The notes beneath the pieces were generated by a model that did no database searches, was not told where the DNA came from, and was given only the letters and a program-made list of their open reading frames with translations. Of a stretch of 64,000 bases of DNA, positions 12,808 to 35,125 are shown one piece after another. The stretch covers positions 6,802 to 70,801 of the forward strand of contig JAYPRP010000002.1 of assembly GCA_038132575.1 (NCBI GenBank), written 5' to 3'. Source of the stretch: Rhodospirillaceae bacterium. Its GTDB lineage: Bacteria; Pseudomonadota; Alphaproteobacteria; UBA6615. Position numbers and translations under genes: made by a program. Each line of letters begins with the position of its first letter. Within the stretch, counting starts at the first letter, position 1.

Positions 12808-13137
12808 TCAGGCATGTTCTTCAATCGCCTTCTTGAGGACCTGGCGGCGATCGACGCCGGTGCGGGTCTCCACGACCTCTCCGTCCTTGAAGAACATGAG
12901 CGTCGGGAAGCCGCGCACACCATAGCGCGACAGCAGGTCGAGATTCTCGTCACCATCGACGGTGCCGATCACCACATTCTCGGGAAGCTCCTCGTTCACC
13001 TGTCCGAGAATCTTCTTGAGCTGCTTGCACGGCACGCAGGTCTTGGACCAGAAGTCGACGACGGTCAGCCCCTCGCGTTCGAGGACCTCGGTGTGGAAGT
13101 TGGAATCGTCGAAAATCGCAAGATCTTCCAGCGCCAT
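12808..13137 (-). CDS. Thioredoxin, 109 aa.
   Basis: Internal Met MALEDLAIFDDSNF of track ORF 12808..13593. WSKTCVPCK active site and the FPTLMFFKDGE motif. It is the first gene of an operon with the AhpD-like genes. Confidence 0.8.
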   Translation of the reverse strand: MALEDLAIFDDSNFHTEVLEREGLTVVDFWSKTCVPCKQLKKILGQVNEELPENVVIGTVDGDENLDLLSRYGVRGFPTLMFFKDGEVVETRTGVDRRQVLKKAIEEHA

Positions 13138-17913: not shown

Positions 17914-19320
17914 ATGGCCGACCCAAGCCCCGACTTCTCCGCGATCCCCTCGCTCGACCGCCTGTTGCAGGCGCCGTCGGTCGCCACCCTCGTGGAATCG
18001 CACGGACGCGCCGCGACGACGGCGGCACTGCGCGCGGCGCTCGACGGCGCCCGCGGGACGATCGCGGCGGGCGACGCAGCTGACCTCTCGGAAGATGCCT
18101 TCGCGCGAACGGCGGCGGCGCAACTCGCGCGCGCGGCGGCCCCCGGGCTGCGCCGCGTCTTCAACCTGACCGGCACCGTGCTGCACACAAACCTGGGCCG
18201 GGCGCCGCTGGCCGAAGCGGCAATCGAGGCGATGGCCGAGGCCGCGCGCGGCGCGAGCAACCTGGAATACGATCTCGACAGCGGCAAGCGCGGCGACCGG
18301 GACACCCATGTCGAGGAACTGCTCTGTGAGCTGACAGGTGCCGAGGCCGCGACAGTCGTGAACAACAATGCGGGCGCCGTCCTGCTGCTCCTGAACGCGC
18401 TGGCGCTGCGCAAGGAAGTGCCCGTCTCGCGCGGCGAGCTGGTCGAGATCGGCGGCGCCTTCCGGATTCCCGACATCATGGCGCGGGCGGGCGCCAAGCT
18501 GGTCGAGGTCGGTACCACCAACCGGACCCACGCCCGGGACTTCGAGGGTGCGATCGGCGCCAGGACCGCGCTGGTGATGAAGGTCCACACGTCGAACTAC
18601 ACGGTCCAGGGCTTCACCGCCGACGTGCCCGAGGGCGATCTCGCCGGGATCGCCCACGCGGCGGACATTCCCTTCGCCGTCGATCTGGGTGCCGGGGCGC
18701 TGGTGGATCTCGAGCGCTGGGGCCTGCCCCACGAGCCCACCCCGCGCGAGACGCTGGCGGCGGGCGCGGACATCGTCACCTTCTCCGGCGACAAGCTGCT
18801 GGGCGGCCCCCAGGCGGGGCTGATCGTCGGGCGCGCGGACCTGATCGCGCGGCTCAAGAAGAACCCTCTCAAGCGTGCGCTCCGCTGCGACAAGGCAACC
18901 CTCGCCGCGCTGGCCGCGACCCTGATGCTCTACCGCGATCCCGACCGGCTGGCTGAACGGCTGCCCACGCTCAAGCTCCTGGCGCGTGGGGCGGACGATA
19001 TTCGCGCCGTCGCGGGATCGCTGCGCGACGCGGTTGGCGAGGCCGTCGGCGACGCGTTCACGGTCTCGGTCGAGGACTGCGCCGGACAGATCGGATCGGG
19101 CGCGCTCCCGGTCGAGAGCCTGGGCAGCGCCGCACTGGTCATCCGGCCGGCCGCGGTGCGCGGCCAGGGCGCGAAACTCAAACGGCTGGCGGCATCGCTC
19201 CGCGCCTTGCCCGTGCCGGTCATCGGGCGCGTGCATGACGACGCGCTCTGGCTCGACCTGCGCTGCCTCGACGATACCGACGGCTTCTGCGCCCAGCTCC
19301 AAAATCTGCACACATCATGA
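17914..19320 (+). CDS. selA: L-seryl-tRNA(Sec) selenium transferase (selenocysteine synthase), 468 aa.
   Basis: [15 protein letters not shown] and the PLP-lysine motif [13 protein letters not shown]. Size and order match selA; it is followed by selB with a 4-nt overlap. Confidence 0.9.
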
Positions 19321-21227
19321 TCATCGCGACCGCGGGCCATATCGATCACGGCAAGACCCTGCTCGTGAAATCGCTGACGGGCGTCGACGCCGACCGCCTG
19401 CCGGAAGAGAAAAAGCGCGGCATGACGCTCGATCTCGGCTTTGCGTACACCGACCTCGAGAACGGCGCGCGGCTCGGCTTCATCGACGTGCCGGGCCATG
19501 AACGCCTGGTCCACAACATGCTGGCGGGCGTGACCGGCATCGACTGCGCGCTGCTCGTGGTCGCGGCGGACGACGGCCCCATGCCCCAGACGCTCGAACA
19601 CCTGGCGATCCTCGATATCCTGGGCGTCTCGCGCGGGATGGTCGCGCTCACGAAGATCGACCGGGTGGACGCATCCCGCGTGGCCGAGGTCCGGGACGAG
19701 ATCGAACTGCTGATCTGTGAAACTTCGCTGGCGGGCGCGACGGTGTTCCCGGTCTCGGCGGTCACCGGCGACGGGATCGAGGCGCTGCGGGAAGAAATCG
19801 CCGACATGGCCGCGGTCACCGAGGCGCGCTCCGGCGCAGGGCATTTCCGCCTCGCCGTCGACCGGGTGTTCACCGTCGCAGGCGCCGGCCTGGTGGCGAC
19901 CGGCACCGCCTTCGCCGGCACGGTCTCCCGCGAGGACCGGCTGTGGATCGCGGGGCACGACGTGCAGGCGCGCGTCCGCGGCATTCACGCCAACAACACG
20001 GACAGCGAGACAGGCCGGGCCGGAGACCGGCTGGCGCTCAACCTCGCCGGGCTCGACAAGGACGACATCGCGCGCGGCGACTGGTTGGTGGCCGATTCCG
20101 GGCTCGGGCTCTACCGCAAGCTGGATGTCCGGCTGAACGTGGTCGCCGATGCCAAGAGGCCGCTGCGGCACTGGACCCCCGTCCATGTGCATCTCGGCGC
20201 GCGGAACGTCACCGGCCGGGTGGCGATCCTCGGCGCCGACAGCGCCGCGCCGGGGAGCAACGTACCGGCGCAGCTCGTGCTGGACGCGCCCGTCGGCGCG
20301 TGCGTGCGCGACCGGTTCGTCATTCGCGACCAGTCGGCACAGGTCACGCTCGGCGGCGGGCACGTAGTGGATCTGCATCCGCCGCGCCGGGGGCGCGCCA
20401 GGCCGGAACGCCTCGAGCTGCTCGACGCCCTCGACACGCCCGACGCCGAGACGGCACTTGCCAGCGCACTGGCCCGGTCCCCGACCGGCCTGTCGATCGC
20501 CGACTTCGCGGCGGAGCGCAACCTGACCGAGGCCGAGATGTCCGCCGCTCTTTCGGCGACCGGCGCGGCGTCGGCGGGAACCGGCGCGGATGCGCTTGCG
20601 ATCGCGCAAGACGCCTGGGCCGCGCGGCGCGAGGAGTTGCTCGCCGCCCTCGACCAGTTCCACACGCGCTACCCCGACCGGCTGGGGCCCGCCGCGGCAC
20701 AGCTGCGCAAGAGCGTCGGCCGGTTCATCCCGGAGACCCTGTTCGACGCGGTCAGCGCGAAGCTGGTCGCCGACGGCACCATGTCGAGCGACGGGATGCT
20801 GCTGCACCGCCCGGATCACCGGCCGGGCCTGACGGGCGACGACGCGAAGCGCTGGGAAGCGCTGCAGCCCTATCTGAACGAGACGCCGGCAAGCCCGCCG
20901 GTGGTGCATGACCTGGCCCAGGCCGCCGGCCTCCCGGTCAACGGCGTCGGCAAGACGCTGCGCCAGGCGGTGCGCATGGGGCTCGCCGTGCAGATTGCCG
21001 AGAACCGGTTCTTCCTGCCCGCAGCGCTGCGCGCGCACGCACGGACCTTCGAAGCGATGATCGCCGCCGACGGCAGCGTCGGTGTGTCGCCATTCCGCAA
21101 GGAAGCGGGAATCGGACGGAATCTCGCCGTCGAGTTACTGGAGTATTTCGATCGGGTCGGCCTGTCACAGCGCGACGGGAATGTTCGTCACCAGCTCCGG
21201 CCGGTCGAAGAAGTGTTCGGCGCCTAA
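19317..21227 (+). CDS. selB: Selenocysteine-specific translation elongation factor, 636 aa.
   Basis: N-terminus [22 protein letters not shown] with G-domain motifs DVPGHE and TKID. A long C-terminal extension is consistent with SECIS-binding winged-helix domains. Confidence 0.9.
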
Positions 21228-21236
21228 GTCCGGGCT

Positions 21237-21854
21237 TCAGGGGCGCACGAAGGCGTAGCTGACCACCTGGCGGACGTTGTCGGTCGCGCGCACGGTGGCA
21301 ATCGCCTTCTCGAGCTCCTCCCGGGAGCGCGCGCGGCCCATCAGATAGACGGTGCCGAAGGAATCCGCAGCCGTGCGGAAGTTCACGTCGGCGACCCCCC
21401 GGGTCGACACCATCTCGATATCGACCTTGGTTTCCAGTACCAGGACATCGTCCCAGCCCAGGAGCTCATCCTTCCGGCGTTCACGCTCTTCATCGGTGAG
21501 CACATGGGCGTGCCAGAAGAGCTCCTTCACGCCCTCGACCTGCTTCACCTTGTCGTGGAAGGCGTCGTGGGTCGCCTGGTCGGAGAAGATGCCGGTGATC
21601 AGGAGCTTCTGTTCGTAGATCTCGGTCGAGGCCTTGATCGTCCCGACGTCGGCCATGGTGGCATTCACGTCGATGACGATGCGGTTGTCCTTGGCGATGT
21701 CCGCCGCGCTGCGCGCCTCGATCGCGCGGTCGATGAGGGTCTTCGGCGCCTTCAGGATGTCGCCGAGCTGCGCGCCCGAGGGCTGCACGGTCATCGCGAG
21801 AGCGGGTGCGGCAAGCAACGCCGCCACCGTGGCCTTCTGAAAACGCATGAGCAT
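21237..21854 (-). CDS. BON-domain (OsmY-like) periplasmic protein, 205 aa.
   Basis: Start MLMRFQKATVAALLAAPALA (signal peptide, AAAGGA RBS). Two BON-like repeats. Confidence 0.6.
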   Translation of the reverse strand: MLMRFQKATVAALLAAPALAMTVQPSGAQLGDILKAPKTLIDRAIEARSAADIAKDNRIVIDVNATMADVGTIKASTEIYEQKLLITGIFSDQATHDAFHDKVKQVEGVKELFWHAHVLTDEERERRKDELLGWDDVLVLETKVDIEMVSTRGVADVNFRTAADSFGTVYLMGRARSREELEKAIATVRATDNVRQVVSYAFVRP

Positions 21855-22230
21855 TCCTTTCGGTCGTGTCCCCGGTCTGCCCATCATTGGTTTTCTCCTC
21901 GCATTCGATCCCCTTAGCTGCCCGCGGCCCGTGTCGCCCCGAACCTCCCTGCCCTATCGTGTGCGCCGAGAACGGGTCAATGTCAGAGCGCGTCGTCCGG
22001 CGGTAGGCCGCCGGCCCGCAACGCGCCACACCGTCTATCTAGTGCGTGAATGTGGCGGATGTGAGGAGCTTTCGGGAGCGATTGGAGACCGCGCGGCGGC
22101 TGGAACACAGGCGAACACCGCCTTCGGTATCTCACTCGGCTCACTCACAGCCGGCTCCCCGTCAGCGCTTGCGTGGAGAAGTCTAACATCGGACACTCGC
22201 GGACCTTACCAACGGCTTCGGGTCGATGCG

Positions 22231-23112
22231 ATGCAACCCCTGACGATCGGTGCCTTCTCCGTGCAGTCGGTGAACGAGGCGACCGGCGCCTATATCACCC
22301 CGGCGGACATGTTCCCCACGGCGACGCCCGAGGCCGTATCGGAACATCTCGACTGGATGGCGCCGACCTACTTCGACATCGCCAGCGGCAAACTGAAGCT
22401 CACCTTCCAGAGCTTCATTCTCCAGACCCCGAACCACAACATCCTGATCGACACCTGCGTCGGCGAGGACAAGGAGCGCGCAAATCCCGACTTCCACATG
22501 AAGAAGTGGCCGTGGATGGACAACCTCGCGGCCCTGGGCCTGACGCCCGCAGATATCGATATCGTCATGTGCACCCACCTGCACCCGGATCATGTGGGCT
22601 GGAACACCCAGCTCGTGGACGGGCGCTGGGTCCCGACGTTTCCGAACGCGAAGTATGTCTTCGCGCGCGACGAGTACGCCCACTGGGAGGCGGAAAGCAC
22701 GGCGGGCGCGGAACGCGTCGGCCTCACCTTCATCGACAGCGTGCTGCCCGTCATGGAAGCCGGCCAGGCGGTGCTGGTCGATCATGACCACGAGATCGAG
22801 ACCGGCGTCTGGCTCGAGCCGACCCCGGGTCACTCGCCGGGCCATGTAATCGTGAACGTCGAGTCCGACGGCGAACGCGGGGCCTTCATCGGCGATTTGA
22901 TGCACCACCCGATCCAGGTACCGTACCCGGAATGGAGCACCTGTTTCTGCTGGGACATGGAGATGTCGGCAGCGAGCCGCAGCAAGTTCGTCGATGCCCA
23001 GACCGACAGCGGCAACCTTGTGCTGCCGGTCCATTTCGCGGGTGCGACCGCCGGGCATATCGTCGCGGCGGGCGACACCCGCACCTTCAAGTTCCTCGAC
23101 ACCACCAACTGA
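22231..23112 (+). CDS. MBL-fold metallo-hydrolase (lactonase-like), 293 aa.
   Basis: Internal start MQPLTIGAF of track ORF 21847..23112. HLHPDH (HxHxDH) metal-binding motif. The start is uncertain (weak RBS). Confidence 0.65.
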   Translation: MQPLTIGAFSVQSVNEATGAYITPADMFPTATPEAVSEHLDWMAPTYFDIASGKLKLTFQSFILQTPNHNILIDTCVGEDKERANPDFHMKKWPWMDNLAALGLTPADIDIVMCTHLHPDHVGWNTQLVDGRWVPTFPNAKYVFARDEYAHWEAESTAGAERVGLTFIDSVLPVMEAGQAVLVDHDHEIETGVWLEPTPGHSPGHVIVNVESDGERGAFIGDLMHHPIQVPYPEWSTCFCWDMEMSAASRSKFVDAQTDSGNLVLPVHFAGATAGHIVAAGDTRTFKFLDTTN

Positions 23113-23121
23113 GAAAATTCC

Positions 23122-23919
23122 ATGACCATCACCGTGATCCAGACCCTCGACGTGGAGCCCGAACGCATGGAGGAGCGGGACGGCTGGGCAATCTCGGAGT
23201 TCCGGCTGCCGATCACCGGCGAGACCGGGAGCGCGACGACGGTGTTCCACTCGATCTTCCGGCCGGGCTCGACCCACGCCAAGCATCTGCACGAGGTGAG
23301 CGACGAGATCGCGGTGTACCTGTCGGGCCACGGCGTCGTCGGCCAGGGCGAGAGCCGGGCCGTGGTGACCGCCGGGCACTGCCGGCTGATGCCGAAGGGC
23401 TCGGAGCATTTCTTCTATAACGAGACGACCGACGAGGATGCGAAGGTTATCGGCTTCTACATGAATGCGCCGAGCGTCGCGGGCACCGGCTACCAATTCT
23501 GCGGAACGGTGAGCGACGACGACCTGACGCGCGACCGTGACGGCCTCAACGAGGGCATTCTCGTGCGGCTGGAGGAGACCGCGGCACCGGGTGACGGCGT
23601 TCCCGAGGCGTGGCGCGATGCGGCGTTGAAGGCACCCATCGGCGCCCACAACGGCAGCGAGAATTCGCTGGTCCACGCCGCGCTCGCCCCCGGCGCGAAA
23701 ATCGCCGAACACGCGCTGGCCGGGGCCGAGGCGATCTACTACATCGTATCGGGGACCGGGCTGGCCGTGGATGGGGACGGCGAGTCGGCCATCGCGGCCG
23801 ACAGCTTCGTGTTCGTGCCGCGCGGCGCAAGCCACGCGATCCGCAACACCGGCACGGCGGCGCTGGAACTCTATATTGTGCTGACCGGCGCGGGCAGCCT
23901 GGCCGCGGCCGCCGGCTAG
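23122..23919 (+). CDS. Bicupin protein (two cupin domains), 265 aa.
   Basis: Two cupin motif sets (HAKHLHEVSDEIAVYLSGHG and AEHALAGAEAIYYIVSGTG). Confidence 0.6.
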   Translation: MTITVIQTLDVEPERMEERDGWAISEFRLPITGETGSATTVFHSIFRPGSTHAKHLHEVSDEIAVYLSGHGVVGQGESRAVVTAGHCRLMPKGSEHFFYNETTDEDAKVIGFYMNAPSVAGTGYQFCGTVSDDDLTRDRDGLNEGILVRLEETAAPGDGVPEAWRDAALKAPIGAHNGSENSLVHAALAPGAKIAEHALAGAEAIYYIVSGTGLAVDGDGESAIAADSFVFVPRGASHAIRNTGTAALELYIVLTGAGSLAAAAG

Positions 23920-23923
23920 ATAC

Positions 23924-24274
23924 CTAGGCCTTGCTGCGGGTCATCCCGGCCATGCCGCCGATCACGAGCGCCAGCGCATAGCCGAACGGCAGCATCATCA
24001 CGGTCGAAAGGAGCGGCTTCCAGACGAGCACGAAGGGCTCGGGACCGCCGCGCATCACGAAGAGGATGATCGTGACCGCCGCCGCGATGAGAGCGCCGAC
24101 ATAGGCTTCGCGGTGCAGATCGCTGTACCCCTCGAGCCGCCCCGACTTGTGCGAGGTATCCTCGCTCGGGAACACGATCGTGAGCGCAAGGGTTGCGACG
24201 ATCATGACCACCAGCGGCACCACGAACAGAATCAGGTTATCGGGATTGGCGAAAAACTTGGCGACAACTTCCAT
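23924..24274 (-). CDS. Small integral membrane protein, hypothetical, about 116 aa.
   Basis: Start MEVVAKFFANPDN with a GGGGAG RBS. Three to four hydrophobic helices. Confidence 0.45.
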   Translation of the reverse strand: MEVVAKFFANPDNLILFVVPLVVMIVATLALTIVFPSEDTSHKSGRLEGYSDLHREAYVGALIAAAVTIILFVMRGGPEPFVLVWKPLLSTVMMLPFGYALALVIGGMAGMTRSKA

Positions 24275-24300
24275 GACGGCTCCCCTGCCCATACCTCGTC

Positions 24301-24317
24301 GCGTTTCCAAGAAACGC
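24301..24317. promoter_or_regulatory. Perfect palindrome GCGTTTC-caa-GAAACGC in the divergent promoter region between the membrane-protein gene and the redoxin selenoprotein gene.
   Basis: 7-bp inverted repeat with a 3-bp spacer, read directly. Confidence 0.35.
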
Positions 24318-24455
24318 TTGTATACCACTTACAATGCCAGCGTGTGGGGGACAAGCCCAAGCACAATCCGATGATTGCGGCGCATCGCGTTAGGGTGCAC
24401 CATAACTCCGCAATCCGCGCCGGTTTCGGCGCATTTCTCCAGCAAAGGAAGCAAC

Positions 24456-24929
24456 ATGTCAGAGAAACTCGGCATCGGCTCGGCCTTCCCGAAACTGACG
24501 GTTGATCTCGTCGGCGGCGGAACGCTCAGCCTGCCCGATGACCTAGACGCACGGTACCGGGTCATCCTCTTCTACCGTGGCCACTGGTGACCCTACTGTC
24601 GCCGTCAGTTGGTCGGCTTTGCAGAATTGAAAGACGAGTTCGACAAGCTCGGCGCCCAGGTATTCGCCGCCAGCGTCGATCCCGTCGATAAGGCCCAGGA
24701 AGTCGCCGATGAGGTGAACTTCCCCGTCGGACACAGCGTATCCCGGGACATCGCCAACGCGCTCGGCTCCTACTGGGAGGACCGGCGCCGGATCATCCAG
24801 CCTTCGGAATTCATCGTCGGTGCCGACGGCAACGTCGCCGCCTGTTCGTACAGCGACGGCCCGCTGGGCCGGATCGATGCGGCGGACGTCCTCAAGATGG
24901 TGAATTTCTACGATTCCCAGAACAAGTAG
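24456..24929 (+). CDS. Candidate selenoprotein: thioredoxin-fold redoxin (AhpC/TSA/Prx-like) with W-U-P-Y-C active site. TGA at 24588..24590. About 157 aa.
   Basis: Start MSEKLGIGSAFPKL after an AAAGGAAG RBS. Track ORFs 24375..24590 and 24609..24929 share a frame. Read-through: ...RVILFYRGHW-TGA-PYCRRQLVGFAELKDEFDKLGAQVF.... TGA sits at the first Cys of a CxxC motif. Confidence 0.6.
24601..24617 (+). other. Candidate SECIS hairpin GCCG-ucaguuggu-CGGC beginning 10 nt after the UGA of the redoxin gene.
   Basis: Short stem with a G-containing apical loop at the expected spacing. Weak on its own. Confidence 0.25.
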
Positions 24930-24956
24930 GCCGGCACACGCCGGGATAGAAACGAA

Positions 24957-24988
24957 CGCCGCACCGGCCCGCCGGTGCGGCGTTTTTT
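24957..24988 (+). terminator. Rho-independent terminator CGCCGCACCGG-cccg-CCGGTGCGGCG followed by TTTTTT.
   Basis: Perfect 11-bp stem plus T6 tract, 28 nt after the redoxin stop. Confidence 0.8.
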
Positions 24989-25071
24989 CGTACCTGCGAA
25001 ACCAGGACATTTACGCATCCCCGATGGGGGGCTAAGCTCTCAGGAGAACACGGTTCGGGAGGAACAATATA

Positions 25072-25464
25072 ATGATCGCCTATGACCTCAAGGTCGAAGA
25101 GGAATGGAATCCCCAGCGCCACGTCGAGAAAATTCTCGACACGGTGGAGAACGGGGATGTCACCGTCGCCTGCTGGGAGCCGGGACAGGTGAGCCCGAAC
25201 CACTGCCACCCCAACGCGACGGAGATCTACTTCTGCTTCGAGGGTGGCGGCGTGATGCGCACGCCCGACCAGACGATCGACGTCAAGCCGGGTGCCTTCA
25301 TCGTGCACCCCCCGGGCGAACTCCACGAGTATGAGAACGGCCCGCAACGCTCGCTCCTGTTCCGGGTGCGCTACGGCGGCGACTTCTCGACCCGGATCAA
25401 GGACTGGCCCAGCCAGCCCGACTTCGAACGCAGCGACGACGACCGGGCCTACTATCCGGACTGA
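25072..25464 (+). CDS. Cupin domain protein, 130 aa.
   Basis: GGAGGAA RBS. Cupin metal-binding motifs NHCHPNATEIYFCFEGGG. Confidence 0.6.
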   Translation: MIAYDLKVEEEWNPQRHVEKILDTVENGDVTVACWEPGQVSPNHCHPNATEIYFCFEGGGVMRTPDQTIDVKPGAFIVHPPGELHEYENGPQRSLLFRVRYGGDFSTRIKDWPSQPDFERSDDDRAYYPD

Positions 25465-25623
25465 CCAATCGAGGGAGGAATCATACCTGTCCGCAACCCG
25501 AAGCTCGTTGGCATTCTCGCGGCAGCCATAAGCCGAATTTGAGAAAGGCATTCATGAGACTTCGTAAGGCCGGTGTCGGTCCCGCGGCTTGCCCTGCTCT
25601 GCCATCTCGCCGACAATGAAGGT

Positions 25624-25719
25624 GGAGGAGGACCGTTCCCCGGTGGGGCGCCCGGTCTTCAAAACCGGTGAGGGGCGTTAGACGTGCCTGGTGGGTTCGA
25701 CTCCCACCCTCTTCCGCCA
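25624..25719 (+). tRNA. selC: tRNA-Sec (anticodon UCA), 96 nt including encoded CCA.
   Basis: 8-bp acceptor stem GGAGGAGG/CCTCTTCC (one G-U pair). 6-bp D-stem. Anticodon stem CCGGT/ACCGG with loop CTTCAAA (anticodon TCA). Long variable arm. 5-bp T-stem GTGGG/CCCAC with TTCGACT loop. Discriminator G, then CCA. The 8/5 architecture is diagnostic of bacterial tRNA-Sec. Confidence 0.85.
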
Positions 25720-25812
25720 GTTTTCACGCACCCAAGCGCGATCCGGGAAAGACACCCGCCGCCCGGTGTTGATGTTCGCGCGGATGCGAAGCCCGGCAGT
25801 CCCTGAGAGCGC

Positions 25813-28035
25813 ATGACCCCGACCGTCCCGATCACACATGATATTGTCCTGATCGGCGGCGGCCATAGCCATGTGGCCGTCCTCAAGCGGTTCGGCATGA
25901 AGCCCGAGCCCGGGATCCGGCTGACTCTGATCACCCGGGACCTGCTGACACCCTATTCGGGCATGATCCCCGGCTACATCGCCAACCATTACAGCGCGGC
26001 CGAGGCGCATATTGACCTGCGCCCCCTCGCCGCCTTCGCCAACGCCCGGATCATCCACGCGGCGGCGACGGGGCTGGATCTGCAAAACAACTATGTCCAG
26101 GTCGCCGGCCGCCCGTCCGTGGCGTTCGATCTCGTCTCCGTCGACACCGGCTCGACCCCGTCAACGGCAGACATCGTCGGCGCCGGACACGGGTTGCCGG
26201 TGAAACCCATCGACCGCTTCCTTGAAACGTATCACCGCCTGACCGACGAGATCAGGAACCATCGTGGCCCGTTCCACATCACCATTGCGGGTGGCGGCGC
26301 GGGCGGGGTCGAGCTCGCGCTCGCGCTGCGCCACCGGCTGGGGCTGGCGGCACCGGGCCTCGGTAAGCGCCCCGGCGATCTCCGCTTCGCCATCGTCGAG
26401 GCCGCCGATACGCTCTTGCCCGGCTACAACAGGGCGGCCCGCCGCAAGCTCGCCCGCGCGCTCGCGGACCGCGGGATCGCCGTGCAAACCGGCGCGGGCG
26501 TGACACAGGTCGGGCCGGATACGGTGACCCTCGCCGACGGCGGCGTGCTTGACAGTGACAGAACGATCCTGGTGACCTCGGCCGGACCGCCCCACTGGCT
26601 CGCGGACAGCGATGTGGCGCGCGACGACCGCGGCTTCGTGCGGGTCGATGCGACGCTCCGCTCGCCGTCGCATCCGCAACTCTTCGCCACCGGCGACGCC
26701 GCCTCGATGGACGGGCACGCGCTGCCGAAGGCGGGGGTCTATGCCGTCCGCCAGGGGCCTTACCTGGCCGAGAACCTGGGCCGCGCGGCGCGGGGCCGGC
26801 CGCTGCGCAGCTACCGGCCGCAGGGCCAGACCCTGGCGCTCATCACCACGGGCGACAGGTTCGCCATCGCCGCACGCGGCTCGCTCTCCGTTCAGGGCGC
26901 CTGGGTGTGGCGCTGGAAGGACTGGATCGACCGACGCTGGATGCGCAAATACCAGGAGCTGCCGGACATGGATGCGGGCGACGGCGCGGACGGCGACGCA
27001 ACGCTCGAGGCCATGCGCTGTGGGGGCTGCGGCGCCAAGGTGCCGGCCCCGGTGCTCCGCCGCGCGCTCGACCGTTTGCCGCCGCAGGAAATCGAGGGCC
27101 TCGACCAGGGGCTGGATTCACCCGACGACGCAGCGGTCCTCACCCCGCCGCCGGGCAAGGCACTAATCCAGACCGTCGACCAGTTCCGCGCCTTCATCGA
27201 CGATCCCTATCTCTTCGGACGCATCGCGGCCAACCACTGCCTGGGCGATATCTTCGCAATGGGCGCCGAGGCCCATTCAGCACTGGCCGCGGTGATGCTG
27301 CCCCACGGCGAGGACGCGAAGACGTCCGACGATCTCTACCAGCTGCTCGCGGGTGCGACCGAGACCCTTGCAGAGGCCGGCGCGGTTCTCGCCGGCGGCC
27401 ACACCGGCGAGGGTGCGGAGATGGCCTTCGGCCTGACGGTCAACGGCTATGCCGATCCGGACACCATCCTGCGCAAGGGCGGGCTCGCGCCCGGCGACGC
27501 CCTAATCCTCACCAAGCCGCTCGGCACGGGCGTCCTGTTCGCCGCCGACATGCGTGCCAAGGCGGGCGGCGACCATGTGACGGCGGCGTTCGCCTCCATG
27601 CAGCGCTCGCTCGCGCTGGCGATCCCGGTGGTCCGGGACCATGGCGCGCACGCCGCCACCGATGTCACCGGCTTCGGGCTGGCGGGGCACCTGCTGGAGA
27701 TGCTCAACGCATCGGGCGTCGATGCCGAGCTCGAGCTCAACGCGCTGCCGGTCCTGCCGGGCATCGCCGCGCTGGTGGCCGCCGGCCATGAGAGCACGCT
27801 CCGGCCCGGCAACGAGGAGGCGGTCGGCAACGCCGCGCCCGTCTCAGCGCACCCGAACTTCCCGCTGCTGTTCGATCCGCAGACCGCGGGCGGGCTTCTC
27901 GTTGGCGTCCCGAGCGAACGGGCCGAGGCCTGCCTTGACGCGCTCCGCGCCGGCCCCGCGCCGGACGCGACGATTATCGGGCAAGTCACTGCAAGGATGG
28001 GCGACGTCTGCGTGCTGCGCTACGCCGAAACCTGA
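25813..28035 (+). CDS. selD: Bifunctional protein: N-terminal FAD-dependent pyridine-nucleotide-disulfide (NADH dehydrogenase-like) oxidoreductase domain fused to selenide, water dikinase, 740 aa. Cys-type active site.
   Basis: N-terminus DIVLIGGGHSHVAVLK (Rossmann FAD motif) and a second GGGAGGVELA nucleotide-binding motif. C-terminal half has SelD hallmarks: MRCGGCGAKV (catalytic Cys, not Sec) and an AIR-synthase-like fold. Confidence 0.85.
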   Translation: MTPTVPITHDIVLIGGGHSHVAVLKRFGMKPEPGIRLTLITRDLLTPYSGMIPGYIANHYSAAEAHIDLRPLAAFANARIIHAAATGLDLQNNYVQVAGRPSVAFDLVSVDTGSTPSTADIVGAGHGLPVKPIDRFLETYHRLTDEIRNHRGPFHITIAGGGAGGVELALALRHRLGLAAPGLGKRPGDLRFAIVEAADTLLPGYNRAARRKLARALADRGIAVQTGAGVTQVGPDTVTLADGGVLDSDRTILVTSAGPPHWLADSDVARDDRGFVRVDATLRSPSHPQLFATGDAASMDGHALPKAGVYAVRQGPYLAENLGRAARGRPLRSYRPQGQTLALITTGDRFAIAARGSLSVQGAWVWRWKDWIDRRWMRKYQELPDMDAGDGADGDATLEAMRCGGCGAKVPAPVLRRALDRLPPQEIEGLDQGLDSPDDAAVLTPPPGKALIQTVDQFRAFIDDPYLFGRIAANHCLGDIFAMGAEAHSALAAVMLPHGEDAKTSDDLYQLLAGATETLAEAGAVLAGGHTGEGAEMAFGLTVNGYADPDTILRKGGLAPGDALILTKPLGTGVLFAADMRAKAGGDHVTAAFASMQRSLALAIPVVRDHGAHAATDVTGFGLAGHLLEMLNASGVDAELELNALPVLPGIAALVAAGHESTLRPGNEEAVGNAAPVSAHPNFPLLFDPQTAGGLLVGVPSERAEACLDALRAGPAPDATIIGQVTARMGDVCVLRYAET

Positions 28036-28094: not shown

Positions 28095-29330
28095 TCAGCC
28101 GTGAATGGTGCGGTGGCGCTGATGGGTCGGAACCATGGCCGTCGGCGCGAGCGCCTTGAAGCCCGGATGCTCGCTCTCCATCGCCCAGTTGCGGATCTCC
28201 ACGAGCACCTTGCCCAGGGTCGTCTCACCCCACAGCCAATTCCCGATGTCCACGTCGGTGACCCGGCCGTCGGGCCGCGCGATCGCCGATTCCATGTAGT
28301 AGTAGCGCATGTCGTCGGCCATCTGCTTGAAGGCCAGATGGACCGGCTTTTCGTCGCCGAACGGTGACGGCGTGTCTTCCCGGTTCACCACGAGGCTGGC
28401 AAGGAACGCGGGAATCTCCTCGGGCGCCTTGCCCGAGATCCCGTAGTTCGTCCGTCCGCCGCGGCTCTGCTTCGATTCCTCGTACCACGGTTTCAGGAGC
28501 GCGATCTCCTGCAACAGCGTCTGCTCGAGCAGTTCCTGATCGCTGACGTCCTCCACCAGTGCCGCGAAGTTGACCGGGCAGGCCCAGCCTTCCTGCTCGA
28601 CGTCCGCGCCCGGCGGGTCGTCGGGGAAGTCTTCCAGGACGGGTCCGGATTCACGCTCCAGCAGGTCCAGGCAATCGCGCAGGACCCGGCGCTGAAACTC
28701 CGGCTCGTTCGGCGCGCCCAGGGGACGGCCGAGCTCGAATGGCACCGCGAGCGCGCGCGGAGGCTTGATTTCCTCGGCATGCTTGCGGATCAGCGCGATC
28801 TGCGTCGTCGGAATGCCTTCGTCTTCGAGATAGTGTGCAAGCCCGCCCACGGCGCGCGTGCATTGGGGTCAGACGGGGACGAGCGCAACCGCGTCGACAT
28901 TGTCCGCCTTGAGGACGCCGGCGAGGTCACGCGCGATGGGTTCCATCACGGTCGGCGGGGTTGCCCCCATGAAGGAGAAGTGCCGGCTCGCGACCGAGCC
29001 GATGACACCCTCTTCGGCCAGTTCGCGCAGGCGGTCGATCGGGAAGGATGTGTTCACGTCCTGATAGAAGCCGCTGCGGTCGAAGTTGGTCGACAGGTGG
29101 CTCATCACCAGGTCGCCCATGTCGTAATCGTCCGGGATGATCCGGTAGTCGCCGGCGCCCGGCGTGAACGGATCGTCCTCGCGCCGGTGCAGACCGGCGG
29201 TCGAGATAAGCGCGACACGGCATTCGTCGAGCGGCTTGGGCGTGACCCATGGCGTGTCGCCGTACTCGGGCAGTTCCTGATTGATCAGCGCCTCGCGCAG
29301 ATGATCAGGCATTTCTCGCAGGTGAACCAT
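28095..29330 (-). CDS. Candidate selenoprotein of the glycine/sarcosine/betaine/D-proline reductase selenoprotein B (GrdB/PrdB) family. UxxC motif with TGA at 28869..28871. About 411 aa read-through.
   Basis: Track ORFs 28869..29597 and 28095..28850 are in the same frame (29597-28850 = 747). Start chosen at MVHLREMPDHL (29330, GGGGAG RBS). Junction ...VDAVALVPV-TGA-PQCTRAVGGLAHYLEDEGIPTTQIALIRKH... gives U-P-Q-C. My by-eye base reading around 28800-28860 differed by one base from the track translation, so the junction follows the track frames. Confidence 0.5.
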
Positions 29331-29443: not shown

Positions 29444-30136
29444 TCAGGCCGCGCGCATGTCCTCGGCGGTGGTGCCGGTCGAGGTGTTCTCGGCGTATTT
29501 GCGCCAGTTCTCGATCAGCACCTCGAGCGACGCAGAGCCCTCCGTCACCGACGGGCGCTGGCCCATGAGCTGCAGCCAACCCTTGAGGAGCACGCATTCG
29601 TCGGGGATCTGGAAGTCGCGGTAGTGGGTGAGCACCGCGACCCGCTGCATGTGCGGCAGGAAGGTCAGGTCGACCAGACTGATGTCGTCGCCGAGCCAGT
29701 AGGAGCCGTCGCCCAGCTTGCCGAGCCCTTCATGCTCCATCATCAGCATCGCCTTCGTCAGCCGCTCAACCTGGAAGGCCTGGGCCTCGGCGTCCTGGGC
29801 CATCATCAGCTTGTAGACATGGGGCGTGAAGCGGACATTCGCGAAATCGATCCAGATGCGCGCCTGGGCCCGGCGGACCGGATCGCGCGGCAGCAACGGA
29901 CGCTCCGGGAACACCTCCTCGAGATACTCGTTGATGACGGCGGATTCGAAGATCACCGCACCGTTGTGACGCAGCACGGGCACCTTGCCGTAGGGCGAGA
30001 TCGCGAGGAACCAATCGGGCTTGTCGTTCAGGTCGATCGCGGTGAGCGTGTGCTCGATCCCCTTCTCGATCAGCGCCATCCGGGTGCGCTGGGCGAACGG
30101 ACAGGTGGACGAACTGATGATCTCGACGTCGCTCAT
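29444..30136 (-). CDS. Glutathione S-transferase (Cys-type, CPFA active site), 230 aa.
   Basis: N-terminus MSDVEIISSSTCPFAQRTRMALIEKGIEH (thioredoxin-like GST N-domain) and a C-terminal helical domain. Confidence 0.75.
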   Translation of the reverse strand: MSDVEIISSSTCPFAQRTRMALIEKGIEHTLTAIDLNDKPDWFLAISPYGKVPVLRHNGAVIFESAVINEYLEEVFPERPLLPRDPVRRAQARIWIDFANVRFTPHVYKLMMAQDAEAQAFQVERLTKAMLMMEHEGLGKLGDGSYWLGDDISLVDLTFLPHMQRVAVLTHYRDFQIPDECVLLKGWLQLMGQRPSVTEGSASLEVLIENWRKYAENTSTGTTAEDMRAA

Positions 30137-30153: not shown

Positions 30154-32550
30154 CTAGTACTTGCCGAGCGCCTTGAGCACCCGCTCGGGCGTGATCGGCT
30201 GGGCGAAGACCGTCGCCCCCAGGGGACTGAGCGCGTCGTTGACGGCGTTCAGGATCGCGCCGGGCGCACCCGCGGTGCCGGCCTCGCCCGCACCCTTAGC
30301 GCCGAGCTCGGATTCCTTCGTCAGCGTCTCCACATGCCCGATCTCGATATCCGGCATCTCGCCCGCCATGGGCACCAGATAGTCGGCCATGTTCGCGTTC
30401 AGGAAGTTGCCGTCCAGGTCATAGCGGCACTCCTCGTAGAGCACGCCGCCGATGCCCTGGACAATCGAGCCGCGCACCTGTTCGTCCACCAGGAGCGGGT
30501 TGATGACCTTGCCGCAATCCTCAACGCAGTAGAACTTGAGCAGCTCGACCGTGCCGAGCTCGGGATCGACCTCGCAGGTCACGGCCTGGAAACTGTTGGT
30601 CATCGCCACGGGATACTTCTTCGGGATGTAGTGGCGCGTCGCCATCATCTCGGACTGGAAATCCTGGGGCAGCGTGTCGGGCCGGAAGTAGGCCACGCGC
30701 GCCACCTCCTCGAGCGGCATGCGCTCCTCGCCGGTCGCCCGGTCAACCACGACGCCGTGGCGGATGTCCAGCGACGCGGCCTCGGACTGGAGCAGGATCG
30801 CGGCCACGTCGAGGACGTTGTGACGCAGCGCCTTGGCCGCCTGGAGCGCTGCCTCGCCGGCAATGCCCGCACCGCCGGAACCGCCCGCGCCCCAGCCGAC
30901 CGGGACGTTGTCCGTGTCGCCCGAGATCACCTTTACCTTGTCCGGCGTGGTGCCGAAGGCGCTGGCCGTCACCTGCTGGATCACGGCCTCCGAGCCCTGG
31001 CCCTGCTCGGTGATCGACGTCTGGACGATCACGGCCCCCGACGCGTCCATCCGCGCTGCCGCGCCGTCCTGGGACGATATGCGCGCCCCGCCCAGCCCGT
31101 AGGTGTGCGGGCCCGGGTTCGTCATCTCGACAAGGGTCGCAAAACCGACGCCGCGGTAGATGCCCTGTTCGCGCAACCGGGCCTGCTCCGCGCGGAAACC
31201 CTGGTAGTCGAACATGGCAAGAAGCTTGTCGAGCGAGGCCTCGTGGGAGAGGGCCTCCATCTTCAGGCCGGTGATGAAATCGCGCGGATAGCTGTCGTCC
31301 GCCATGAGGTTGCGCCGGCGCACATCGACCGGATCGAGCCCGAGCTTGCGCGCACCCTCTTCCATGAGCGTTTCGGTGATCGCGACGGCGACGGGATGGC
31401 CAACCGCGCGATACTGGCTCATCGGCGTCTTGTTCTGGAACACGACGCGCGAGCGCGCCTTGTAGTTCGCGTGGTTGTAGGGCGCGCCGACATAGTTGAT
31501 GACCTGCAGCGCCTCGAGCGCGGAGGTGCGGGGATACATCGAGTAGGGACCGACGCCCGTGAGGTCGTCCATCTCGATGGCGAGCAGTTCGCCATCCTCG
31601 GCAAACGCCGCGCGCACGTGAGCGCGGTGGTCGCGCGCGTGCAGGTCCGTCAGGAAGGATTCAATCCGGTCGGCGATGAACTTCACCGGCCGTTTCATGA
31701 TCTTGGAGATCGCGGCCGTCGCCATCTCGTCGGGATAGGTGTGTCCCTTGACGCCATACGCACCGCCGACGTCGCCGCACACGATCCGGACATTCTGGTT
31801 CGGGATGTCGAGATGCCGGGCGAACAGGTCCTGCATCATGTGCGGGGCCTGGTGCGAATGGTACGAGGTCAGGCGGTTCTCGGAGCTGTGATAGTCGGCG
31901 ATGATCGCGCGCGATTCCGGGCACACGCCGGTGTGACGGCCGAAATGCATGGTGTGCCCGACCACCGCCGCCGCCTCGGCAAACGCCTTTTCGGTGTCGC
32001 CGATATCGTGATTCATCTCGAACAGCAGGTTGTCGCCAAGATCGGCATGCATCACGAGCGTGTCGTCGTCGAGCGCGACCTCGGGATCGGCGAGCACCGG
32101 CAGTTCCTCGAACTCGACCTCCAGCAGTTCGAGCGCGTCCTCGGCTTCCGCCCGGCTGTGGGCGACGATCGCGGCCACCGGCTCGCCCTGCCAGCAGGCC
32201 CGGTCCACTGCCATCGCGTACTGGGGCGCCGACTTCATGCCCTTGAAGTGGGCAAGCGTTCCGACCCAGGGGGTACAGACCTCGGCGATCTCCTTGCCCG
32301 TGAACACCCGGATCACGCCGGGGCTCGCCAGCGCGGCCGCGTCGTCGATCGAGACGATCTTCGCGTGCGCATAGGGCGAACGGAAATAGGCCACATGGAC
32401 CATGCGCGGCAGCGACAGGTCATCGACATACCTGCCCTGGCCGGCCACCAGGCGCGCGGCGTTGGCGCGCGGCACGGTCTTGCCGATGAAGGTTTCCTCG
32501 CGGTCGAGGACGCTTTCCTCGCCCGAATGGTCCGCCACGCTCATGAGCAC
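30154..32550 (-). CDS. Xanthine dehydrogenase/CoxL-family molybdopterin-binding subunit, 798 aa.
   Basis: ELGAKGAGEAGTAGAPGAILNAVNDAL C-terminal active-site Glu region and a QYRAVGHP loop. Paralog of 32735..35125 and 9160..11499. Confidence 0.8.
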   Translation of the reverse strand: MLMSVADHSGEESVLDREETFIGKTVPRANAARLVAGQGRYVDDLSLPRMVHVAYFRSPYAHAKIVSIDDAAALASPGVIRVFTGKEIAEVCTPWVGTLAHFKGMKSAPQYAMAVDRACWQGEPVAAIVAHSRAEAEDALELLEVEFEELPVLADPEVALDDDTLVMHADLGDNLLFEMNHDIGDTEKAFAEAAAVVGHTMHFGRHTGVCPESRAIIADYHSSENRLTSYHSHQAPHMMQDLFARHLDIPNQNVRIVCGDVGGAYGVKGHTYPDEMATAAISKIMKRPVKFIADRIESFLTDLHARDHRAHVRAAFAEDGELLAIEMDDLTGVGPYSMYPRTSALEALQVINYVGAPYNHANYKARSRVVFQNKTPMSQYRAVGHPVAVAITETLMEEGARKLGLDPVDVRRRNLMADDSYPRDFITGLKMEALSHEASLDKLLAMFDYQGFRAEQARLREQGIYRGVGFATLVEMTNPGPHTYGLGGARISSQDGAAARMDASGAVIVQTSITEQGQGSEAVIQQVTASAFGTTPDKVKVISGDTDNVPVGWGAGGSGGAGIAGEAALQAAKALRHNVLDVAAILLQSEAASLDIRHGVVVDRATGEERMPLEEVARVAYFRPDTLPQDFQSEMMATRHYIPKKYPVAMTNSFQAVTCEVDPELGTVELLKFYCVEDCGKVINPLLVDEQVRGSIVQGIGGVLYEECRYDLDGNFLNANMADYLVPMAGEMPDIEIGHVETLTKESELGAKGAGEAGTAGAPGAILNAVNDALSPLGATVFAQPITPERVLKALGKY

Positions 32551-32654
32551 CGTTCCCCTGTGACCTGTTATCGGGGGAACGGTACAGGCCCGGGACCTCT
32601 ACGGCCAGCCCGGCGGGCGTTCACGATCGGGACAGCGGGCGCGACAACAGGCAC

Positions 32655-32719
32655 GCCCTCATCCTGAGCTTGTCGAAGGAGAGGGCGGCCCCTCATGCTT
32701 CGACAAGCTCAGCATGAGG
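32655..32719. repeat. Second copy of the twin-hairpin element. It contains TGAGCTTGTCGAAG (32665..32678) and the inverted exact 29-mer CCTCATGCTTCGACAAGCTCAGCATGAGG (32691..32719).
   Basis: The reverse complement of this 29-mer equals the 29-mer at 7793..7821. It lies between the tandem XDH-family paralogs. Confidence 0.7.
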
Positions 32720-32734
32720 TTCGTGATTCCCCGC

Positions 32735-35125
32735 CTAGAACTTGCCGAGCGCCTTCAGGATTCGTTCCGGCGTGATCGGCTGGTGCGACACGCGGACGTC
32801 GAAGGGCGAGAGCGCATCGTTGATGGCGTTCATGACCACCCCCGGCGCGCCGGCCGTGCCGGCCTCGCCCGCACCCTTGGCGCCGAGTTCCGAATCCGCC
32901 GTCGGCGTCTCCACATGGCCGACATGGATGTCCGGCATCTCGCCGGCCATGGGCACCAGGTAGTCGGCCATATTGGCGTTCACGAGATTGCCCGTATCGT
33001 CGTAGCGGCATTCCTCGAGCAGCGCGCCGCCGAGCCCCTGGATCACGCCGCCGCGCACCTGCTCGTCCACCAGCTGCGGGTTCAGCACCGTGCCGCAATC
33101 CTCGACGACCCAGTAGTCCAGGAACCGCAGGAAACCGGTCTCCGGATCGACCTCGACGTAGCAGGCCTGGATGCCGTTCGTGAACGCGATGTTGTACTCG
33201 CGCGGCACGAAATGGCGGGTCGCCATCAGCTCGGGCTGGAAGCCCTTGGGGATCAGGTCCGAGCGGAAGTAGGAGATCCGCGCCAGCTCGTCGAGCCCCA
33301 TCCGCTCGTTGCCCGTGTCGTCATCGACCACCACGCCCTCGCGGATGTCGAGGGTCTTCGGGTCGGCCTGGAGGAGCTGGCCGGCGATGTCCTTGATGTT
33401 GTAACGCAGCGCCTTGGCCGCCCGGAGCACGGCCTCTCCGCCGATGCCCGCGCCGCGCGAGCCCCAGGTGCCGCCGCCGGTGGGCACGTTGTCCGTGTCG
33501 CCGGTGATGACCTTGACCCGGTCCGGGCTGGTGCCGAACGCGGTGGCCGCGATCTGGCCCATGATCGCGTCGGTGCCCTGTCCCTGCTCGGTCACCGACG
33601 TGTGGACGACGATCGAGCCGCTCGAATCGAGCCGCACCTGCGCGCCGTCCTGGGACGAAATCCGCGCGCCGCCGATGCCGTACATGGCCGCGCCCGGGTT
33701 GGTGAGCTCGATCATCGCCGCGAAGCCGATGCCGCGATAGACGCCCTCGCCGCGCAGCCTGTCGCGCTCGGCCTTCATGCCCTCGTAGTCCATCGCGCCG
33801 AGCAGCTTGTCGAGTGACGCGTGGTGGGAAAGGCCCTCGAAGACGATGCCGCTCGCGCCCTTGGTCGGGTAGGCGTCGTCCGTGATGAGGTTGCGCCGGC
33901 GGATATCGACCGGGTCGATCCCGAGCGCCTGCGCACCCTTGTCCACCATGGCCTCGGTCACGGCGAAGGCGACCGGGTGGCCGACGGCGCGGTACTGGCA
34001 CATGACGTTCTTGTTCTGGAACACGACCTGCGCCTTGGCGCGATAGTGCTCGTGCTTGTAGGGGCCGCCGGTGAAGTTCAGGACCTGGTTCGCCTCCATC
34101 GCGCTCGTGCGCGGGTACATGGAGTAGGGCCCGACGCCGGTCAGGTCGTCGATCTCGATCGCGGTGATGTCACCGTCCCTGGTGAAGCCCATCTTGGCGT
34201 GCACCCGGTGCGCGCGGGCATGGATGTCGGTGAGGAAGGACTCGATCCGGTCGGCGGCGAACTTGACCGGCCGGCCAAGCATCTTCGACAGGGCCACCGT
34301 GGCCATCTCGTCGGCATAGACATGGACCTTGATGCCGAACGACCCGCCGACGTCGCGGCAGACCACGCGAACCTGGCCCTCGGGCACGCCGACATGCTTG
34401 GCGAAGATGTGCTGCATCATGTGCGGCGCCTGGTTCGACATGTGCACGGTCAGCTTGTCGTCGGCCTCGTCATAGTCCGCGACGAGGACGCGCGGCTCCA
34501 GCGTGACGCCGGTGTGGCGGTCGAAGTGGTAGGTCTCCTCGACCACGACGTCCGCGGCGGCAAAGGCCGCGTCCACGTCCCCGGCCTCGACCCCGTTCTC
34601 GAAGGCGATGTTGTCGCCGAGATCGGGATGGATGACCGGCGTTCCGGGGTCGCCCGCCGTCTCGGGATCGGTGACCGCCGGCAGCTCCTCATACTCGACC
34701 GTGATCGCGGCCGCGGCATCCTCGGCCTCGGCCCGGCTGTTCGCGACCACGGCGGCAACCGCCTCGCCCTGCCAGCAGACATGATCGACGGCGATCGCGT
34801 GCTGCGGGGCCGACTTGAGGCCCTTGAAGTGGGTGAGCACGCCGACCCAGGGCTCGCAATACTCCGCCAGTTCGGCGCCGGTGACGACGCGAACGACACC
34901 GGGCATCCCGGCGGCCGCGCTCGTGTCGATCGAGATGATTCTCGCATGGGCGTGGGGCGAGCGGAGATAGACCGCGTGCACCATGCGGGGCAGCTTCAGG
35001 TCATCGACGAACTGGCCCTTGCCGCGCACGAGCTTGCGCACGTTCGGCCGCGGCACCACCTTGCCGATGTAGCTGTTGGGGCGTCCCAGGACGCTCGAAT
35101 CCGGACTCAGGGCTTCGTCGGTCAT
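32735..35125 (-). CDS. Xanthine dehydrogenase/CoxL-family molybdopterin-binding subunit, 796 aa.
   Basis: ELGAKGAGEAGTAGAPGVVMNAINDAL and QYRAVGHPVAFAV. Tandem paralog of the downstream gene. Confidence 0.8.
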   Translation of the reverse strand: MTDEALSPDSSVLGRPNSYIGKVVPRPNVRKLVRGKGQFVDDLKLPRMVHAVYLRSPHAHARIISIDTSAAAGMPGVVRVVTGAELAEYCEPWVGVLTHFKGLKSAPQHAIAVDHVCWQGEAVAAVVANSRAEAEDAAAAITVEYEELPAVTDPETAGDPGTPVIHPDLGDNIAFENGVEAGDVDAAFAAADVVVEETYHFDRHTGVTLEPRVLVADYDEADDKLTVHMSNQAPHMMQHIFAKHVGVPEGQVRVVCRDVGGSFGIKVHVYADEMATVALSKMLGRPVKFAADRIESFLTDIHARAHRVHAKMGFTRDGDITAIEIDDLTGVGPYSMYPRTSAMEANQVLNFTGGPYKHEHYRAKAQVVFQNKNVMCQYRAVGHPVAFAVTEAMVDKGAQALGIDPVDIRRRNLITDDAYPTKGASGIVFEGLSHHASLDKLLGAMDYEGMKAERDRLRGEGVYRGIGFAAMIELTNPGAAMYGIGGARISSQDGAQVRLDSSGSIVVHTSVTEQGQGTDAIMGQIAATAFGTSPDRVKVITGDTDNVPTGGGTWGSRGAGIGGEAVLRAAKALRYNIKDIAGQLLQADPKTLDIREGVVVDDDTGNERMGLDELARISYFRSDLIPKGFQPELMATRHFVPREYNIAFTNGIQACYVEVDPETGFLRFLDYWVVEDCGTVLNPQLVDEQVRGGVIQGLGGALLEECRYDDTGNLVNANMADYLVPMAGEMPDIHVGHVETPTADSELGAKGAGEAGTAGAPGVVMNAINDALSPFDVRVSHQPITPERILKALGKF

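Follow-up and report, generated by a model that had tools for sequence, protein, structure and literature searches.

Does a single stretch of an uncultured alphaproteobacterium's genome hold all that is needed to insert selenocysteine (Sec) at UGA codons, and which proteins would such a system serve? We address these questions for a 64-kb stretch of contig JAYPRP010000002.1 from a Rhodospirillaceae bacterium, hereafter referred to as the window. All coordinates are window positions, L-numbers designate loci of relatives, and P-numbers designate database protein entries of homologues. We consider it very probable that the window carries a standard bacterial Sec system, in which selA, selB, a tRNA-Sec gene (selC), and a selD gene fused to a flavoprotein domain are accompanied by four client genes with UGA read as Sec.

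The selenocysteine decoding machinery

According to an earlier, sequence-only reading of this DNA, a complete set of the four components dedicated to Sec insertion lies within about 10 kb. Hidden Markov model (HMM), ARAGORN, and Rfam searches recovered all of them, over a span of 10,122 nt from selA to the selD fusion (17914..28035). The three profiles that had been proposed as a check, TIGR00474, TIGR00475, and TIGR00476, score the corresponding coding sequences above the curated cut-offs, and neither of the outcomes that had been named as refuting the reading came about.

The selA gene (17914..19320, + strand) encodes an L-seryl-tRNA(Sec) selenium transferase of 468 amino acids, with a score of 587.8 bits against TIGR00474 (cut-off of 267.9) and matches to the Pfam families PF03841 (SelA; 541.3) and PF12390 (Se-cys_synth_N; 42). 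The protein matches Escherichia coli SelA (PDB 8uzw) at E = 9e−149, and its K294 aligns with the Lys at chain position 295 of that structure, K295, which we take to be the pyridoxal phosphate-binding lysine of the E. coli enzyme. The start of selB (19317..21227, + strand) overlaps the end of selA by 4 nt (19317..19320), just as had been read from the sequence. Its product, a Sec-specific elongation factor of 636 amino acids, scores 457.7 bits against TIGR00475 (cut-off of 242.25) and has the Pfam domains GTP_EFTU, D2, and Beta-barrel_SelB, followed by the winged-helix domains SelB-wing_2 and SelB-wing_3.

The sole tRNA called by ARAGORN in the whole window is a tRNA-SeC with anticodon tca. This gene, selC (25624..25719, + strand), encodes its own CCA and matches Rfam family RF01852 with 71.2 bits (gathering score of 47, E = 1.4e−12), the only Rfam family to reach its gathering score. 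Both the minimum-free-energy fold and the RNAalifold consensus of 12 orthologues contain acceptor, T, and D stems of 8, 5, and 6 bp as well as a long variable arm, and 10 pairs of the consensus show compensatory changes. The UCA anticodon that had been claimed for this tRNA is thus upheld by ARAGORN, and the 8/5 form by the fold and the orthologues.

Also upheld is the claim that a selD fusion starts 93 nt past the tRNA-Sec gene, at position 25813. The gene (25813..28035, + strand) encodes an Ndh-SelD fusion of 740 amino acids with matches to TIGR03169 and TIGR00476. The N-terminal part (amino acids 10 to 380, about 25840..26952) is an NDH-2-like FAD/NAD(P)H oxidoreductase domain, which scores 445.5 bits against TIGR03169 ("Nterm_to_SelD"; cut-off of 310). 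Two dinucleotide-binding Gly motifs are present in its sequence, and its nearest solved relatives are type II NADH dehydrogenases such as 4nwz. The selenophosphate synthetase domain begins at amino acid 399 (about 27007..27999) and matches TIGR00476 (selD) over amino acids 399 to 703 (291 bits, cut-off of 125). C406 and K409 correspond to Cys17 and Lys20 in the alignment to E. coli SelD (3u0o). Together with C403, C406 forms a CxxC in the SelD active-site loop, and the motif MRCGGCGAK around it is unchanged in 12 homologues (54 to 92% identity). No terminator was found in the 93-nt spacer between tRNA-Sec and selD, and we infer that the two may be co-transcribed. A promoter scan of positions 17500 to 29600 returned nothing.

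Four genes with an in-frame UGA

A codon log-likelihood model was trained on 23 long window open reading frames (ORFs), and every TGA was scanned for coding signal on both sides. Four sites survived inspection, one each in an AhpD-like, a Prx-like, a PrdB-like, and a SelW-like gene. In all four genes, TGA occupies a redox-motif position, and the family HMM match spans it. The sequence-only reading had counted at least four Sec candidates and had held that the carrier genome must use UGA for Sec. When the codon-bias scan is combined with family and comparative evidence, exactly four candidates are credible, and these well-supported selenoprotein genes bear out the use of UGA-Sec by the carrier genome. 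The scan also returned four same-frame ORF pairs (at TGA 16896, 23110, 41857, and 46242), which were rejected because the downstream ORFs have their own start and belong to an unrelated family (EamA / luciferase-like; MBL / cupin; MarR / unknown; gentisate-dioxygenase-like cupin / unknown). A short extension past 21237 was rejected as well.

The PrdB/GrdB-like gene (28095..29330, − strand) encodes 411 amino acids with the motif PV-U-PQC (Sec codon at 28869..28871) and scores 29.1 against Pfam GRDB (cut-off of 22). TGA is codon 154 in 12/12 orthologues and paralogues (43 to 99% identity), with alignments that run full length across it, and full-length database homologues have Cys at this position (PVCPxCTR). 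The C-terminal half of the protein is helical, conserved, and family-specific; it belongs to no Pfam family and, in sequence or in fold, resembles nothing in the PDB. The protein was rejected as a true D-proline reductase PrdB, given its scores of 122.9 against TIGR04483 (cut-off of 300) and 45.6 against the GrdB/PrdB subfamily model TIGR01918 (cut-off of 65.45), and no PrdA is encoded in the window. Most public entries of this family (P0121 to P0240) are C-terminal fragments of about 250 amino acids labeled "hypothetical protein," as gene callers stop at the UGA and restart downstream. A related Alphaproteobacteria metagenome-assembled genome (MAG) has a tandem pair of PrdB-like paralogues, with 82% and 64% identity to the window's protein and an in-frame TGA in each (L008, 13259..15751).

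The Prx-like gene (24456..24929, + strand) encodes 157 amino acids of the AhpC/TSA fold with the motif HW-U-PYC (Sec codon at 24588..24590). Its match to PF00578 (AhpC-TSA; 78.7 bits, cut-off of 26) spans the TGA, which is kept in 6/6 orthologues (51 to 97% identity), and Cys is found at the Sec position in three homologues (30 to 32% identity). In the alignment to the TxxC of solved peroxiredoxins, U45 takes the place of the Thr and C48 that of the peroxidatic Cys. The gene is of the "Prx-like 1, UxxC" type. Past its end, the sequence contains an intrinsic-terminator-like hairpin with a T-run (24955..24990, + strand). On its other side, between a cupin gene and the Prx-like gene, lies an ORF for a small predicted membrane protein of 122 amino acids with about three hydrophobic segments and no family match (23924..24292, − strand). 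ORFs of similar size, also without a family match, occupy the equivalent position in L001, L003, and L006, and in L003 the small ORF still adjoins tRNA-Sec though the Prx-like gene is absent.

The AhpD/CMD-like gene (12132..12752, − strand) encodes 206 amino acids with the motif C-SY-U (Sec codon at 12507..12509). Its match to PF02627 (CMD; 28.3, cut-off of 23) spans the TGA, and its score against TIGR00778 (20.9) lies below the cut-off of 27.8. The motif aligns with the CxxC of the AhpD-family structures 2gmy and 6k40, the codon-bias scores around the TGA are +44.7 and +46.9, and a distant homologue has Cys at the Sec position (L070, 31% identity). In a relative with 81% identity, the gene is split into 81 and 122 amino acids at the point of the TGA. 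Public orthologues are either fragments broken exactly at the TGA codon or "full-length" proteins with W there (P0241 to P0244). These W residues likely come from short contigs translated by a code in which TGA means Trp, an artifact that hides selenoproteins. Directly upstream is a thioredoxin gene (12808..13137, − strand; Pfam Thioredoxin, 83.5 bits), whose product is likely the operon partner of the AhpD-like selenoprotein. Directly downstream is an AhpD-like paralogue without the redox motif (11593..12132, − strand; 28% identity, weak NF053654 match), in which EDPYF replaces HCSYU and F stands at the U position. The three genes form an apparent unit (11593..13137, − strand), and their order recurs in L087 to L089.

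The SelW/Rdx-like gene (58473..58691, + strand) encodes 72 amino acids with the motif C-KL-U (YCKLU; Sec codon at 58503..58505), a CxxU near the N terminus. It scores 52.7 against TIGR02174 (cut-off of 34.2) and 56.2 against PF10262 (Rdx; cut-off of 22.6).

A hairpin can be drawn after each of the four UGAs. In the PrdB-like gene it has a GC-rich stem and a GUG apical loop in the predicted folds (28836..28862, − strand), its upper stem begins 11 nt downstream of the UGA, and it recurs in 12/12 sequences. Five loci with proteins of 70 to 99% identity agree there at 30 of the 32 nt that start with the TGA, and identity at the codon level is highest right behind the TGA, where 10 of 11 codons for identical residues match, versus 0 to 6 elsewhere. 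The conservation of about 30 nt after the UGA extends to synonymous sites in both the PrdB-like and the Prx-like genes, and in the latter about 31 nt after the TGA are nearly invariant. The hairpin of the AhpD-like gene, with a 9-bp upper stem and a GGC loop (12470..12500, − strand), comes from a single-sequence fold only (z = −1.28). These patterns are suggestive of functional selenocysteine insertion sequence (SECIS) elements.

Several observations weigh against such an account of the window. Single-sequence fold z-scores of the four hairpins range from −1.3 to +1.0 and are no better than those of shuffled sequences, and Rfam returned no SECIS match even at E ≤ 10. RNAalifold returned no compensatory pairs for the PrdB-like hairpin (5 sequences) and one in the Prx-like alignment (6 sequences), and the RNA signal after the UGA overlaps coding constraint. 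For the system as a whole, the evidence is that of sequence comparison, and the function of the Ndh domain is, in the literature, a proposal only (PMC2432076). Our view also spans 64 kb only, and a second selD, a selU, or other selenium traits may lie elsewhere in the genome.

The selenium neighborhood and the affiliation of the fusion

The machinery and three of the selenoprotein genes all lie between 12.1 kb and 29.3 kb, in arrangements that are kept in relatives. The Prx-like and PrdB-like genes lie within the machinery or border directly on it, and the AhpD-like gene is located 5 kb upstream of selA. The SelW-like gene lies about 30 kb further on, amid unrelated genes. The order tRNA-Sec, Ndh-selD, PrdB-like gene, glutathione S-transferase (GST) gene, two xanthine dehydrogenase (XDH)-family large subunit genes, acyl-CoA dehydrogenase gene, and CoA-transferase gene is kept in relatives whose fusions are 92%, 83%, 81%, and 69% identical to the window's; in all four, the gene caller split the PrdB-like gene at the TGA. 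The selAB genes are found upstream in the 92% and 69% relatives. In their place, the 81% relative has a type I restriction gene together with unknown ORFs, and the 83% relative has nitrile hydratase and transporter genes. Another relative has the order thioredoxin, AhpD-like(U), paralogue and then, further along, EamA, selA, selB, BON, MBL, as in the window. The comparison with related genomes that had been recommended therefore shows that both the tRNA-Sec–selD–PrdB-like and the selAB–AhpD-like orders are kept. Across eight loci (L001, L002, L003, L006, L007, L008, L012, and the window), tRNA-Sec lies 32 to 94 nt upstream of the fusion selD.

The sequence-only reading had called the region a selenium-utilisation island. 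The clustering of the machinery and three client genes within about 17 kb, and its synteny, stand. The term island fits only in part, because the SelW-like gene is distant, most genes of the window are unrelated to selenium, no integrase or transposase was found, and GC content is even. The region is a conserved selenium neighborhood of about 17 kb, neither a dense nor a mobile island.

A horizontally acquired mobile selenium island, perhaps inserted at or carried with tRNA-Sec, would be compatible with a standard Sec system, and we regard such an origin as improbable. The clustering of machinery and client genes would fit it, as would the variation among relatives of the stretch just upstream of tRNA-Sec (L002 and L006) and the scatter of Ndh-SelD fusions across phyla, for which horizontal transfer has been inferred (PMC4561486). 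Against it, Pfam scans of the window proteins turned up neither an integrase nor a transposase or phage gene (no search was made for flanking direct repeats), and GC content stays between 0.62 and 0.72 along the window without a step at the sel cluster. Moreover, in relatives at 68 to 92% identity, synteny with the sel genes extends to the flanking XDH-family, acyl-CoA dehydrogenase, CoA-transferase, LLM, and EamA genes, which looks like vertical inheritance within the lineage. As to the stretch upstream of tRNA-Sec, L002 (1..9639) has a type I restriction enzyme HsdR gene and large unknown ORFs, L006 (4448..9702) has nitrile hydratase and ABC transporter genes, and the window has selAB through the Prx-like gene; this variation suggests that the DNA next to tRNA-Sec is a hot spot for rearrangement or insertion.

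Fusions of this architecture also occur outside Sec decoding. We surveyed the contexts of 87 fusion loci by tblastn and ARAGORN on the fetched flanks. Twelve of the 87 fusions have tRNA-Sec or selA/selB in their flanks, and 50 lie beside homologues of SenA/SenB (selenoneine pathway), sometimes also EgtD, without Sec genes nearby, for example in Thioalkalivibrio paradoxus, Marinobacter, and Halomonas. The window fusion might, then, be a SenC-type enzyme for selenoneine or another small-molecule pathway, with the position of tRNA-Sec being incidental. SenC is a proven selenophosphate synthetase (bioRxiv 10.1101/2022.04.13.486033), and in many Gammaproteobacteria and Betaproteobacteria the SelD homologue that adjoins SenA/SenB homologues has the same two domains and is 48 to 55% identical to the window fusion. 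The window fusion also matches TIGR04369 ("fusion_not_SelD") at 482 bits, but this score lies below the cut-off of 700, whereas TIGR00476 (selD) passes. No SenA, SenB, or EgtD homologue was found in the window (tblastn, E ≤ 1e−8), tRNA-Sec lies immediately upstream of the fusion in all close relatives, selAB is nearby, and no other selD is visible in the window to serve the four selenoprotein genes. In a neighbor-joining tree, the window fusion falls in a clade that is almost wholly of Sec context, whereas fusions of sen context make up the other major clade; L012 and L029 depart from this division. We therefore regard a SenC-type role as very unlikely. Because of its place in the Sec-context clade, its TIGR04369 score below the cut-off, and the lack of senA and senB in the window, the fusion is, as judged by these comparisons, a Sec-pathway SelD. 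In L029 (1291..12265), from a Rhodospirillales MAG, the fusion, senAB, selAB, tRNA-Sec, and a PrdB-like gene all lie within 12 kb, and one SelD may serve both pathways there.

The survey also bears on the PrdB-like gene, which in 11 of the 12 Sec-context loci, down to 52% SelD identity, is no more than 11 kb from the fusion and which adjoins none of the 50 sen-only fusions. In the window its neighbor is a GST gene (29444..30136, − strand; Pfam GST_N_2, GST_N_3, and GST_C_2), as it is in close relatives. We conjecture, as a long shot, that tRNA-Sec, Ndh-SelD, and the PrdB-like protein make up a functional module beyond a co-inherited neighborhood. The PrdB-like protein could handle selenium reductively together with the fusion and, in close relatives, the adjacent GST; if so, it would be a selenoprotein that contributes to the pathway by which it is made. 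A simpler reading of the linkage is that the gene is a client carried along with the machinery.

Finally, the TGA-interrupted frames could be pseudogenes or adjacent gene pairs beside relic sel genes, with UGA as a plain stop, an idea to which the splitting of the genes by public callers, the four plainly separate same-frame pairs in our scan, and the nonsignificance of the hairpin energies alone lend some color, but which is hardly credible given that in each of the four genes the TGA falls precisely where a CxxC-type motif has its redox Cys, that the TGA is kept down to 43% protein identity with unbroken conservation on both sides, that Cys-bearing homologues are full length, that codon bias is strongly positive on both sides, and that the neighboring machinery is intact and retains its catalytic residues.

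About 50 of the roughly 64 window genes are ordinary catabolic, transport, or regulatory genes in Pfam and NCBIfam scans. They include genes for amidohydrolases, gentisate and extradiol dioxygenases, CoA-transferases, UbiX, a major facilitator superfamily (MFS) transporter, a copper ATPase with a MerR regulator, and three XDH-family molybdoenzymes. The last are molybdenum hydroxylase large subunits (9034..11499, + strand; 30154..32550 and 32735..35125, − strand), two of them in tandem just past the SelD, PrdB-like, and GST genes, a placement that is kept in relatives. No small or medium XDH subunit genes were seen adjacent to them. They were rejected as selenium-dependent molybdenum hydroxylases on their TIGR03311 scores (201 to 216, cut-off of 830), and Pfam scans of the window found no YqeB/YqeC-like protein. 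In the 184-nt gap of the tandem pair, a subthreshold Rfam match to AaHKsRNA41 (32646..32725, − strand; 31 bits versus a gathering score of 97, E = 0.003) is probably due to chance. A heavy-metal P-type ATPase gene (YHS and HMBD domains) and an overlapping MerR-family regulator gene (48856..51545, − strand) look like a copper-efflux pair of the CueR/CopA kind, unrelated to selenium.

Proposed route and comparison with known systems

We propose that the components act in the order known for bacterial Sec synthesis. The tRNA-Sec (UCA) would be charged with serine, and SelA would turn Ser-tRNA(Sec) into Sec-tRNA(Sec) with selenophosphate made by the SelD domain of the fusion. SelB·GTP would then carry Sec-tRNA(Sec) to UGA codons with a hairpin (the bacterial SECIS) behind them, and decoding there would yield at least the four redox selenoproteins of the window. 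The NDH-2-like domain, with NAD(P)H as reductant, presumably converts an oxidised form of selenium to selenide for SelD, and the fusion-specific CxxC beside the catalytic Cys may take part in selenium reduction or hand-over.

This system shares with that of E. coli the four components, the equivalents of SelA K295 and of SelD Cys17 and Lys20, the C-terminal winged-helix domains of SelB, the 8/5 tRNA-Sec with UCA, and a predicted hairpin directly after each UGA. The E. coli genes are spread over separate loci (selAB, selC, and selD), whereas the window has all of them within 10.1 kb, with selC 93 nt upstream of selD. The window SelD also differs in its N-terminal flavoprotein domain, and the clients are small thiol-redox selenoproteins, with no formate dehydrogenase in the window.

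The fusion is a new sequence of a described type, from which it differs in nothing substantive. Ndh-SelD proteins have the same N-terminal COG1252/NDH-2-like domain, a Cys-type SelD, and a CxxC (PMC2398784, PMC2432076, PMC4561486). They are described as always of the Cys type and always with the CxxC, and in ocean metagenomes they made up about 40% of Cys-SelDs (Zhang 2008, PMC2398784). The setting is likewise the same, as the type was described in aquatic and marine bacteria with selenoproteins and other Sec genes, and such fusions are scattered over bacteria that also have these genes (Mariotti 2015, PMC4561486). Reduction of a selenium compound by the flavoprotein domain to feed SelD has been proposed before (PMC2432076).

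The clients, too, are of known kinds. SelW-like (CxxU), AhpD-like (CxxU), Prx-like 1 (UxxC), and "PrdB" (UxxC) proteins are among the most abundant selenoprotein families of the Global Ocean Sampling (GOS) data (PMC2398784, Table 2), and the four window proteins share their folds and Sec motifs. The window's PrdB-like protein differs from the "PrdB" of the GOS set (PMC2398784) in that it is not a true D-proline reductase subunit and, at 411 amino acids, has an extra conserved helical half.

Every element of the window is thus of a described kind, and near-identical sequences are already public: homologues of the fusion are 100% identical (JGI) and 95% identical ("MAG: SelD [Rhodospirillaceae bacterium]"), both under the public name "selenide, water dikinase." Among GTDB species representatives, the closest are Alphaproteobacteria/Rhodospirillaceae MAGs with fusions of 72 to 73% identity. 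The finding is correct but already known, and it raises no new question on Sec decoding itself. Its practical value is for annotation, since the UGA makes standard gene callers cut all four selenoprotein genes short, and the window could serve as a test case for selenoprotein-aware annotation. Only how compact the cluster is, with selC immediately upstream of selD, is mildly unusual, and the window offers a clean, compact example of the marine-type selenium toolkit, in which an Ndh-SelD fusion is combined with SelW-like, AhpD-like, Prx-like, and PrdB-like proteins.

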